Positions 45,684 to 50,738 of a stretch of 64,000 nt of DNA are shown piece after piece. The translations under genes and the position numbers were made by a program. The notes beneath the pieces are model-generated. The model was not told the DNA's origin and did no database searches. It saw only the letters and a program-made list of their open reading frames with translations. This DNA comes from Trichodelitschia bisporula (lineage: Eukaryota): the NCBI GenBank assembly GCA_010356995.1, contig ML996689.1, positions 1,382,691 to 1,446,690 on the forward strand. Reading direction: 5' to 3'. Position 1 is the first letter of the stretch; each line of letters begins with the position of its first letter.

Positions 45684-46931
45684 ATGCTTCTCCTCGATTA
45701 CCAAAATGTACTGATCGAGTCATTGCTTAGGGATCGGTTTTCCGGGTATGCGCCACTTTCCCCACTCCGCAGGTGCTTCGCTGACAGCCTCAAGAGCCCC
45801 GCCCGTCTCCATTGACCAGGTCGTGTCAGATTTTGACAATGTCACGTTCCACATTTCCACCGCGGAGTCGAAGACGAAGATCCTGATATCTATATCAGTC
45901 AAATGCTACAACGAGCTGCTGCAGTATGGCGCCCAGGCGGTGCTGGAACGGGAATATGGTCCGTACATCGTAGCACCTGAGCAAGGGTACGACTTCTCAA
46001 TCCAGGTGGATCTAGAAACCCTCCCTGAGGAACAAGGTTGGAATTACGAGCCCGGTTGCTCTTACCTCGCTGAACAGTACAGCTGCAAAGGATGACCTAA
46101 TCCGGAGGATCTCCCTGCTCAAGCGGAACGTGATGGCCGCCCCTTTTGAGCAAGCCTTCGATGAATTCGAGCAGCTGAGGGAAGAAGCCGCCAAATACAC
46201 GTCGGAATCTGCCCCTCAAGGTGTTAGGGAAGGCGGCGCAGTGCGCGCGATCCATTATCGGAACGAGGAAGCCATCTTCATCAAAGCCAGCCATGACCGC
46301 GTCACCGTCATCTTCAGCACGATCTTTACGGACGAGACAGACCGTGTGTTTGGCAAGGTGTTCTTGCAGGTTAGCTCTGCCAACATTCTAGATGCATGTA
46401 CATGGTTTCTGATACAGTCGCAGGAATTTGTCGACGCCCGTCGGAGGGCTATCCAGAACGCTCCGCAGGTTCTCTTCAGGAACGACCCTCCACTTGAGCT
46501 GCAAGGCATCCCTGGCTTAGCGGCCGGCCAGGGCGAAGTTGGCTACATCACTTTTGGTATGCTCTCACCTGGCCTCCTGTACAATGATGTTAATGACTTG
46601 TAGTCCTATTCCCTCGCCACTTGACTAAGCAGCGCCGGGAAGATGTCATCTCCCATATCCAGACTTTCCGCGACTACTTCCACTACCACATCAAGGCATC
46701 TAAGGTTGGTGCCCTCGCAACTTCTATCACACCATTACTAACAGCGTTATTTTAGGCGTATATTCACTCCCGGATGCGTCGGCGGACTGCCGATTTTCTG
46801 CAAAGTGCGTATGGTACGACCCTGGTTTATCACCGGCTAATATCCGTCTAGTTTTGCGTCGTGCTCGTCCGGATAATGAGGAGAAGGAGAGGAAGACTGC
46901 TAGTGGGCGGACTTTCAAGGTTCAGACGTGA
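45684..46931 (+). CDS. ARC35: Arp2/3 complex 34-kDa subunit
   Basis: [70 protein letters not shown]. Six introns: 45746-45794, 46037-46082, 46370-46423, 46557-46603, 46705-46755, 46805-46851. Confidence 0.96.
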
Positions 46932-47230
46932 ATTGGAGGCCTTTGTGTAGATGCACATCCTGGGATTACTCTACAGCAGGTGTTTGGGGCAGACAGGTAG
47001 GCCGGGATCGGATCATCTGCATGATGATGGCAGATGTGGGTAGCTGCGTAGATTCTTTCCAGCGCCGCACTGTAGCGTTATTGATCTTTGCCTCAATCGA
47101 TGGGCCTTGCGTGTTACTGGAGTTGCAAGGTGCACAATTCAAACGGGCTTGTATCACGTGATGGATGTCCGACCACCTTTCAGCCACTCAACATCCGGCG
47201 ACACCAACTTGTGAACTCCATCCAGGCAAC

Positions 47231-49118
47231 ATGAATCCATTACTGGGTAACTACAGATTAAATACAGGATCGAATATGTACTAATGATGCGCAATAGATG
47301 CCCTTTTGACGCTCTTAATTCCTTCTATAACCTTCGCTCACCTGTATCTGTCCCCTTTCACGAAGGTTGAGGAGTCGTTCAACATCCAGGCGGCGCACGA
47401 CATATTGACATACGGCATTCCCTCTTCAAATCTTGTTGATCATCTGTCAAAGCACTACGATCACTTCAACTTTCCGGGACCCGTACCGCGAACTTTCTTT
47501 GGAGCTGCAACCCTTGCCGGTCTCGCGAAGCCATGGCTGGGGTTAGTAAAGTCCATGGAACAACAGCAGATCCTCGGTACGTCCAATCACTCTTGAAGCC
47601 ATGGGGCATTTGAACGCGACTAACAAATCGGAATAGTTCGTCAGATTCTGGGTCTTGCTAACGCACTCACCATTCTTTCCCTCCGCGGAGCCCTCAACCG
47701 TTGCTTCGGCGCTTCCGCTGGGAACTGGTATATCCTTCTTCAAGCCAGCCAGTTTCATGTCATCTACTATGCCTCCCGCACTCTGCCAAATATGTTTGCA
47801 TTTGTGCTAAGTATGTCTCTCATTGCCTTCTATTGGCTCAAGGCTAACTCACGCTGCCACCCTTGCCCTCCGGTACTATGTACTCGGTCTTGCTGAACCT
47901 CGTGGGTCCTTGAAAGCTCCAAGGCTCTATGGACAATCTTTATTCCTTCTCACTTTTGCTGGTGTCGTATTTCGCGCCGAGCTTGCCGTTCTCGTCCTCG
48001 CGCAGTCCGCAGTCCTGTTCTTAATCTGGAGGATCGGATTCAGGCCAATCTTCACTGCCGGCATGGCCGGGCTCTTTCTCGGATTACTAGCAACAGTTCC
48101 ACTCGATAGCCTTTTGTGGGATCGGGTCCCCACGTGGCCTGAACTGGTTGGCTTCTATTACAACACTGTGCTCGGCAAATCTTCCGATTGGGGAACCAGC
48201 CCATGGTACTTTTATTTCTTCAACGCCCTTCCTCGACTTCTTCTTAACCCCCTGACCTACGCTCTGCTCGTACCAAAAGTGTTCATCAATTCCGACACCC
48301 GCCAGCTAGCAAGCATGCTCCTTGCCCCATATATTGCCTTTGTAGGTCTGTATTCTTTCCTTCCCCACAAGGAGTGGCGCTTTATCATCTATGCTGTGCC
48401 AGCACTCACAGGAGTTGCCGCAGCAGGCGCTTCTCAAATCTGGACCGCATGGCGTTGCTCTCCTTCCCTGAAAAACCGCCTGCTTGCCACGACACTGGTA
48501 GCCTCTGTTCTGGCGAGCTTTGTCTTCAGCACCGCTCTACTCGCCATCTCAAGTGCGAACTACCCCGGCGGAATGGCAGTAGCGCAATTGAGGACGGTGA
48601 TTTCGCGTGATGGACACAATACGAGTGGGGCGGAGGTACTGGTCCACGCCGATAATCTGGTCTGCCAAACGGGCTTGACGCGGTTTCTGGAGCGACACGG
48701 CGCGGGGCACACCGGCGGAGAAGCGATGCTTGTTTTCGACAAGACGGAAGACGAAGAATTACGTCTTAGGCCGGAGTTTTGGTCAAAGTTTGATTACGTG
48801 CTTGCCGAGGCTCCGGAACGCGTGATTGGAAAGTGGGAAGTCGTTGGCGTTGTGAAAAGTTTCGCTGGGATCAAAGTTCTGAAACCGGGGATGGAAGAGG
48901 AGGGCGACGGCGAAGATGGACTGTTGAAGTCAATGACGGAGGCTAGCATCGAGGCTGGCTTGGGGAGGCAGGTGGCGGAATGGTGGGGCAATTTGAGGAG
49001 ATCCATGAGAGGGAGTATCACAAAGGGGTGGTGGATCGATATACGACTGGAGCCGAAAATTCACATTCTGCGGCGAGAGCGCACCCCGCCAGCGACAGCT
49101 GTAGTGTACGCCGACTAA
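47231..49118 (+). CDS. ALG12: Dol-P-Man:Man7GlcNAc2-PP-Dol alpha-1,6-mannosyltransferase
   Basis: [87 protein letters not shown]. Introns 47247-47297, 47577-47636 and 47811-47856 (the last has no AG acceptor). Confidence 0.92.
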
Positions 49119-49601
49119 AGGTGTTGATCAGTATTCACGGCTATGGCTCTGTACATTTACTCTTATAAAGCTCCCAAGTTCCCCGAGCTCACAATAATAT
49201 GAACTCATTGGATCCTTCATCCCACCTTACGCACCCTAGCTTCGACACGGTTGACAACAACAGAATGGCAACATCGTGAACTGGCTTCTCAGGAGGTCTC
49301 TACTATTACCTTCGGTCGGTAAATGGTTATTCCGGTGCACCGCCTCGGTGCAGAGACAGAGCCTGGACCCTCGACCCAGCTTGGCCATGCACAAGCCCCA
49401 TCGTCATTCCTTAGATCGAATCTCAGAGAAGCTCGTCTCGCCGCCCCCCCAGTTATCCTTGATCTCCAAGTTTATGTTGCGTACGTAGTACGTATCTACA
49501 GCTCGCAATCATACACACCAACTACTGCCATCTTACAACTATCACCAGTTACGATTGAGGTTCTTTTCGAAAGCTTCTGCCCAGATTCAAACACCGCCGC
49601 C

Positions 49602-50738
49602 ATGGCTTCAGCAGCTACCTTCGACGAAGACCTTACCATGGAGGCAAATCTGCAGTCTATACTGTCCCAGAAAACCCTTCGGTGGATCTTTGTAGGCGGA
49701 AAGGGTGGCGTCGGCAAGACCACTACATCGTGCTCCCTCGCCATCCAACTCGCGAAGCACCGTAAATCCGTCCTCCTCATCTCCACCGACCCTGCGCACA
49801 ACTTAAGCGACGCTTTTAACCAGAAGTTTGGAAAGGATGCGCGGCTGGTGGAAGGCTTCGACAACTTGAGTGCTATGGAGATCGATCCCAATGGAAGCAT
49901 TCAGGATGTGCTGGCGGCTGGCGGAGATGACGCGCAAGATGCCATGAACAGCCTGGGAGGCGTGGGGAACATGATGCAGGATCTGGCGTTCAGCGTACGT
50001 AGTTCATGTGATCCTAAAACATTCGGTGCTCGGCTTACCCTATCCAGATTCCCGGTGTCGACGAAGCCATGTCATTTGCCGAAGTCTTGAAGCAAGTCAA
50101 ATCGCTATCCTATGAAGTTATCGTATTCGATACAGCCCCCACGGGTCACACTCTGCGCTTCCTCCAGTTCCCCACCGTCATGGAGAAGGCTCTTGCCAAG
50201 CTCTCTCAGCTCTCTCAGCAGTTTGGACCCATGCTGAACACCTTCCTTGGTCAGCGGGGTGCTCTGCCTGGCGGGCAGAACCTGGAAGACATGCTCTCAA
50301 AGATGGAATCACTCAGGGAGACAATAGCGGAGGTCAACACTCAGTTCAAAGACGCCGATCTCACCACCTTTGTCTGCGTGTGCATCCCTGAGTTCTTGTC
50401 GCTGTACGAAACAGAGCGCATGATCCAGGAACTCAACAGCTACCACATTGACACGCACTCCATCGTAGTCAACCAGTTGCTTTTCCCGCGTAAGGATAAT
50501 CCGTGCGAGCAGTGCAACGCCCGCCGGAAAATGCAAAAGAAGTACTTGGACCAAATTGAGGAGCTGTACGAAGACTTCAATGTGGTCAAGATGCCACTCT
50601 TGGTGGAGGAGGTTCGCGGCAAGGAGAAACTCGAGAAGTGAGTAGATCTCCACCCCAACCCCCCCCCTTGCGTGCACACCGCTTATTCTATCCAGGTTCA
50701 GCGAGATGCTGGTGACTCCATTCCAGCCTCCCGAGTAG
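49602..50738 (+). CDS. GET3: Get3/ASNA1 ATPase
   Basis: [52 protein letters not shown]. Introns 49995-50047 and 50638-50695. Confidence 0.96.

Follow-up and report, generated by a model that had tools for sequence, protein, structure and literature searches.

In Trichodelitschia bisporula the third intron of the ALG12 gene is very probably a genuine U2-type intron with CUG as its 3′ splice site, a former GT-AG intron in which one A-to-T change at position −2 has replaced the terminal AG, while the old site goes on being used and the full-length, conserved ALG12 reading frame is kept. The intron lies in a window of 64,000 nucleotides (GenBank assembly GCA_010356995.1, contig ML996689.1, positions 1,382,691 to 1,446,690 of the forward strand), by which we mean the whole stretch of DNA that was analysed; positions are counted from its first letter. 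The part from 47100 to 49300 was compared with four public runs (X1 to X4) in the form of assembled contigs. X1 and X2 are DNA-like runs of one sample, and X3 and X4 are two runs of another single sample. No run is on record as RNA and the RNA type of X3 and X4 is a guess made by software; both are treated as cDNA-derived because their contigs are without introns. Such contigs show the presence of a junction and not the proportions of isoforms: rare variants drop out of them, and NMD would hide out-of-frame products. The parts of the gene are the following, P0001 being the protein deposited for this species.

47231..47246, + strand: ALG12 exon 1, with the ATG at 47231; the translation of the joined exons is P0001, and the joint of exon 1 with exon 2 lies in the loose end of the X3 contig.
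47247..47297, + strand: intron 1, 51 nt, GTAACT...TACTAAT...AG, from the sequence and the gene model; missing from the X3 contig.
47298..47576, + strand: ALG12 exon 2, from the gene model and the RNA-like contigs.
47577..47636, + strand: intron 2, 60 nt, canonical, GTACGT...GACTAAC...AG, from the gene model and from the joint 47575>47636 of X3 and X4, recorded as GT..AG (cut +1).
47637..47810, + strand: ALG12 exon 3, ending after base 1 of codon 157 (phase 1), from the RNA-like contigs and the gene model.
47811..47856, + strand: intron 3, 46 nt, U2-type, with the TG end, from the joint 47810>47857 of X3 and X4 and the gene model.
47857..49118, + strand: ALG12 exon 4, with the stop TAA at 49116–49118, from the open reading frame, the contigs and the gene model; the transcript contigs continue to 49190.

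The four joined exons, with intron 3 removed as GT..TG, translate to P0001 with 576 of 576 residues identical. This protein of 576 aa was found as a 100% identity match when a protein collection was searched with exon 4; it is deposited as hypothetical protein or 'Mannosyltransferase', and the deposited gene model already uses the GT..TG form of intron 3. P0001 carries the Alg9-like GT22 domain of Pfam (Glyco_transf_22, PF03901, E 4.3e-38). A protein search returned 814 relatives, and relatives at 46–52% identity are named by their sources alpha-1,6-mannosyltransferase or Dol-P-Man:Man(7)GlcNAc(2)-PP-Dol alpha-1,6-mannosyltransferase; the PDB chain 9s6t_A, 'Mannosyltransferase', matches at E 6.2e-70. 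Judged by these protein comparisons the gene is ALG12, a GT22 Dol-P-Man-dependent mannosyltransferase, and the domain, the named relatives and the 9s6t_A match bear out the same identity given to it by an earlier, sequence-only reading of this stretch. Its upstream neighbour (46016–46930, + strand) encodes the 34-kDa subunit of the Arp2/3 complex (PF04045, E 1.5e-49) and has several short introns, and its downstream neighbour (49614–50090 and beyond, + strand) encodes an ArsA/GET3-type ATPase (PF02374, E 6.7e-36).

The junction of intron 3 is present in both cDNA-derived runs. X3 yields one contig of 1828 nt (depth 147.8) and X4 one of 1796 nt (depth 55.1), and both follow the exons with 0 differing letters. 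Each joins 47810 to 47857, recorded as 'skips 46, GT..TG' with both=0, and the cut of intron 3 therefore cannot be slid. Both contigs also skip the canonical intron 2 (60 nt, GT..AG), and in the X3 contig the loose 5′ end consists of an adapter remnant followed by exon 1 spliced on, with intron 1 gone. The DNA runs X1 and X2 contain 0 such intron joints. Among the X3 and X4 contigs, none that carries the intron was placed over 47811–47856, and none has an AG junction for intron 3, contigs being prone to drop rare forms. The sequence-only reading had named transcript junctions as a check on this intron, and the junction that the X3 and X4 contigs carry, 47810/47857, is the one it had singled out as restoring the helix.

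The ends of these contigs deserve a remark of their own. The X4 contig begins at 47289 and includes the last nine bases of intron 1 (47289–47297), unlike the X3 contig with its spliced exon 1; it may represent a minority form that is unspliced or has another start, or the contig may simply end there. Both contigs stop at 49190, 72 nt past the ALG12 stop codon (49119–49190), which suggests that the ALG12 3′ UTR is short, although contigs cannot prove an RNA end.

The signals of intron 3 are those of a U2-type intron except at its very end. The 5′ splice site is GTATGT (47811–47816), of the GTRNGT-like form, and near the 3′ end there is a branch motif of the CTRAY type, GCTAAC at 47843–47848, whose putative branch A at 47847, assigned from the motif, is 9 nt from the end of the intron. 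Precise removal from RNA is seen as the 47810>47857 joint of X3 and X4, in contigs from one sample. In place of a terminal AG, the intron ends in ...CACGCTG, with CTG at 47854–47856; both the window and the DNA contigs have T at 47855. Donor, branch motif, TG end at 47856 and length of 46 nt had all been located correctly by the sequence-only reading.

Which other junctions could be drawn here? Between 47800 and 47940, AG dinucleotides end at 47811, 47842, 47916 and 47923 only, and those on either side of the TG are the following.

47841..47842, + strand: the sole AG inside intron 3, directly 5′ of the branch motif and 14 nt upstream of the TG; its use leads to an immediate stop.
47915..47916, + strand: the first AG 3′ of the TG, 60 nt beyond it, with 69 nt separating this AG from the branch A; its use would keep the frame, and it is not the junction of the RNA contigs.

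There is no AG anywhere in 47857–47914, that is, within 59 nt downstream of the TG. With the AG ending at 47842 as acceptor, the reading frame would continue as A+GC and then TAA; retention of intron 3 leads to a stop at 47894–47896 (open reading frame 47624..47896); and the only in-frame GT..AG removal from the donor at 47811 ends at 47916, takes out 106 nt and loses residues 158–177 (20 aa). All three outcomes, an immediate stop, a frameshift to a stop and a deletion of 20 residues, had been foreseen from the letters, and translation confirms them.

Three other ways of cutting the region were tried and rejected. Removal of 47811–47916 as GT..AG deletes 20 residues, A160 among them, and differs from the RNA-contig junction; removal of 47806–47842 as GC..AG (37 nt) places the acceptor 5′ of the branch motif and differs from that junction as well. 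Removal of 47813–47858 as AT..CC would give the commoner Ser-Thr and scores slightly higher against the orthologue consensus, but it is contradicted by the RNA contigs, in which the aligned pieces break off at 47810 and resume at 47857, with 0 differing letters.

The last six bases of the intron, ACG/CTG at 47851–47856, are two sites with a final G in tandem, 3 nt apart, whose distances from the branch A are 6 and 9 nt. The ACG end at 47853 is also in frame and would add one residue, and only the CTG junction was found in the RNA contigs. Retention, the ACG at 47853 (a +1-residue isoform) or the AG at 47916 may be used at a lower level, which would be compatible with the contig data. The local RNA structure predicted for 47790–47930 has −31.9 kcal/mol (z = −0.38), and 63 of 200 shuffles fold at least as well; in this folding model there is no sign of a structure presenting the TG or hiding the AG at 47916.

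Conservation of the protein points to the same junction. Orthologues read ..F[VFA][FL]-S/T-T-L-A-L-R.. across this site, with the same length as the product of the TG junction, which reads VL-TT-LALR. Across the 16 full-length aligned sequences A160 never varies and L161 is conserved in at least 90%, and a junction at AG 47916 would remove both. The sequence-only reading had argued that the TG junction restores the expected helix, and ..FVL-TT-LALR.. is indeed what the orthologues have; this conserved segment and the RNA-derived junction together support the rare GT-TG intron that was one of its proposals.

The history of the site was read from the orthologous introns of relatives. A profile made from the 16 full-length orthologues led to 80 related loci in metagenome contigs, in 75 of which the end of exon 3 was found on the + strand (tblastn, residues 130–156). 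For classing the loci, the donor was fixed at the position it has in the window, after base 1 of codon 157: 37 of the 75 have an intron at this phase-1 site, 19 are continuous and 19 are unclear. Two loci were entered by hand with canonical GT..AG solutions, L080 (47 nt), for which a 166-nt solution with a 'TA' end and an equal score had first been picked, and L060 (48 nt), which was just below the score cut-off. The resulting 38 metagenomic fungal loci hold 36 distinct introns of 45–70 nt at the same codon position, all with GT at the 5′ end. At the 3′ end all 38 have AG (TAG in 18, CAG in 17 and AAG in 3), and a TG end occurs in none of them. Like these introns, that of the window interrupts the same codon in the same phase, has a comparable length (46 nt) and a similar 5′ site, branch motif and branch-to-end distance; unlike all of them, it ends in TG. 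The donor hexamer GTATGT is shared by 6 of the 38, the distance from branch to 3′ end is mostly 9–15 nt in the relatives against 9 nt in the window, and in six loci (L018, L021, L028, L034, L036 and L040) the boundary is YAG/CCAC against CTG/CCAC in the window.

Since all 38 orthologous introns end in AG, the TG is a derived A-to-T change at −2. These alignments are explained most simply by a single A>T substitution at −2 in an intron that is old and conserved and whose splice point has not moved. The relatives are distant (30–56% identity) and the change therefore cannot be dated. As to the intron itself, 19 of the 75 ALG12 loci have none at codon 157 (L001–L003, L005, L007–L009, L015–L017, L037, L039, L042–L044, L046, L047, L049 and L058); as they read through this codon, the intron is present or absent by fungal lineage, through loss or gain.

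How can an intron with such an end be spliced? In the yeast P complex, as described in bioRxiv 10.1101/212811, the G(−1) of the 3′ splice site pairs with the G(+1) of the 5′ splice site, which is the first G of the intron, the A(−2) pairs with the branch adenosine and the pyrimidine at −3 contacts Gln1594 of Prp8; the same account gives U at −2 in yeast as a strong defect of the second step, exon ligation. Yeast without Prp18 is reported to use 'BG' sites close to the branch, one of which is a CUG in MAF1 (PMC10711555), and the catalytic core can therefore ligate such ends if docking or proofreading allows it.

Applied to intron 3, step 1 would be driven by the consensus 5′ site GUAUGU and the branch site CUAAC and would need no AG. 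Step 2 would dock the 3′ end that lies as close to the branch A as is usual (9 nt), chosen by proximity and by its terminal G. Of the three contacts CUG would keep two, those of G(−1), paired with the G that opens the intron, and of the pyrimidine C(−3), and it would face no AG competitor closer than 69 nt downstream of the branch site. Intron 3 would also have to escape proofreading at least in part. The contact between A(−2) and the branch adenosine would be lost, and some loss of efficiency is therefore likely; splicing may well be less efficient than at the ancestral CAG.

Acceptors ending in TG have been described in other organisms. In human, Szafranski et al. 2007 (PMC2374985) report them in GNAS and 35 other genes, 36 in total; TSPYL2 is a further case given by Parada et al. 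2014 (PMC4176328), who also cite GNAS. Within the set of Szafranski et al. the human TG acceptors are exclusively alternative, within 28 nt of an AG and never the sole site, their orthologues never had an AG, and they prefer a purine at +1; the clinical human AG>TG mutants treated there activated other AGs, with no splicing at the TG (PMC2374985). Intron 3 is like these human introns (PMC2374985) in its U2-type 5′ site, in a terminal TG that is used as the 3′ site in mRNA and in the pyrimidine at −3. It is unlike them, as far as that paper describes them, in that its TG stands exactly where the ancestor had AG, that there is no functional AG within 28 nt to which it would be the alternative, the nearest downstream AG being 60 nt off and the sole upstream AG lying 5′ of the branch motif, that the RNA contigs were assembled with the TG junction, and that the base at +1 is C, not a purine.

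Like the BG sites reported for S. cerevisiae without Prp18 (PMC10711555), which include CUG, the site of intron 3 is branch-proximal, ends in G and lacks the A, and it fits docking by G(−1):G(+1). The yeast sites are low-level errors of a mutant, whereas here we deal with the coding junction of what is presumably a wild-type strain. Closer to hand, the manually curated annotation of Ganoderma lingzhi counts 22 GT-TG against 89,855 GT-AG introns (PMC11590231, Table 1). These are likewise fungal GT-TG introns with transcript support, at a frequency of about 0.02%; they are entries of a basidiomycete catalogue, whereas in the present case the ancestral AG and the unchanged position are shown. The term 'GT-TG' has 0 occurrences in the main text of Frey & Pucker 2020 (PMC7072748), whose supplements may list fungal frequencies.

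The comparison with human mutants and with yeast raises the possibility that the change is a hypomorphic mutation: the TG would be used inefficiently, most of the pre-mRNA would be retained or mis-spliced and degraded, and ALG12 output would be down. This account overlaps with our main reading and we find it possible but doubtful. U at −2 is a strong exon-ligation defect in yeast (bioRxiv 10.1101/212811), the human AG>TG mutants described do not splice at the TG (PMC2374985), and contigs give no quantities of isoforms. However, the spliced form is the one that was assembled in both RNA-like runs, at word depths of 147.8 and 55.1, no intron-bearing contig of X3 or X4 covers 47811–47856, and the gene is otherwise intact and conserved. 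The sequence-only reading had also considered a strain-specific splice mutation. What stands of it is the derived A>T at −2, the orthologues having AG in 38 of 38 cases; what does not is a failure of splicing, which persists at the site in the X3 and X4 junction. As the A>T change does not abolish splicing there, an ALG12 defect with accumulation of Man7 is not implied.

Non-canonical junctions in cDNA data are often artefacts, and the evidence for this one comes from one sample. That template switching in reverse transcription, or the assembly, created the junction, or that the functional mRNA uses the AG at 47916, is nonetheless highly improbable. No letter is common to both sides of the junction (both=0), the same junction occurs in a contig of each of two runs, and it falls exactly at the orthologous intron site and restores both frame and length; the form spliced to AG 47916, for its part, would lose the invariant A160 and the conserved L161.

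One base change would make the intron canonical, like the 38 of 38 orthologous introns, and an error in the sequence, with A as the true base at 47855 and an ordinary GT-AG intron, was a further proposal of the sequence-only reading. X1 and X2, however, give one contig each over the full 47100–49300, matching the window without a differing letter at word depths of 438.9 and 220.1. X1 and X2 may be the source data of the assembly and share its sample; they exclude a slip of consensus or assembly and are not an independent strain. Two deep DNA runs keep the T at 47855 when re-assembled, and a base-call error is therefore so very unlikely that we hardly credit it.

U12-type introns have a 5′ motif of the [AG]TATCCTT type and a TCCTTAAC-like branch site. 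That intron 3 is a minor-spliceosome intron with unusual ends, of a class said to tolerate varied terminal dinucleotides (cf. PMC4176328), can practically be dismissed, as its 5′ end is GTATGTCTC, with GTATGT unlike the [AG]TATCCTT-type motif, and its branch is GGCTAAC, the GCTAAC standing 9 nt before the intron end, as the branch does in the U2-type introns beside it and in the GT-AG introns of the orthologues.

The reading that we prefer, a U2-type intron spliced at CUG where its ancestor had AG, places intron 3 among the GT-TG introns, which are a known rare kind, recorded in human and in curated fungal annotation. New here are the clean replacement of an ancestral AG by TG, with the site unchanged and no partner AG, and a junction derived from transcripts. 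The case amounts to a natural single-base experiment on 3′ splice-site recognition: in an intron of a housekeeping gene that relatives conserve, A has become T, and ligation still takes place at the same phosphodiester bond. A gene finder that accepts only AG would get this gene wrong, either truncating it or leaving out 20 residues.

ALG12 is most likely functional in this fungus, and no glycosylation defect therefore need be assumed. Unless the efficiency of splicing is low, the finding has little consequence for the biology of ALG12, and its interest for specialists in splicing is moderate. The wider proposition, that in fungi with short introns a TG can act constitutively and alone as the 3′ splice site, without the help of an AG, seems to us evenly balanced between true and false. 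If true, a change of AG to TG at a branch-proximal acceptor would be tolerated without a shift of the splice point, the choice of site in step 2 would be set in these fungi mainly by the distance from the branch and the terminal G, and the rule derived from human introns, that TG acceptors depend on a neighbouring AG, would be contradicted.
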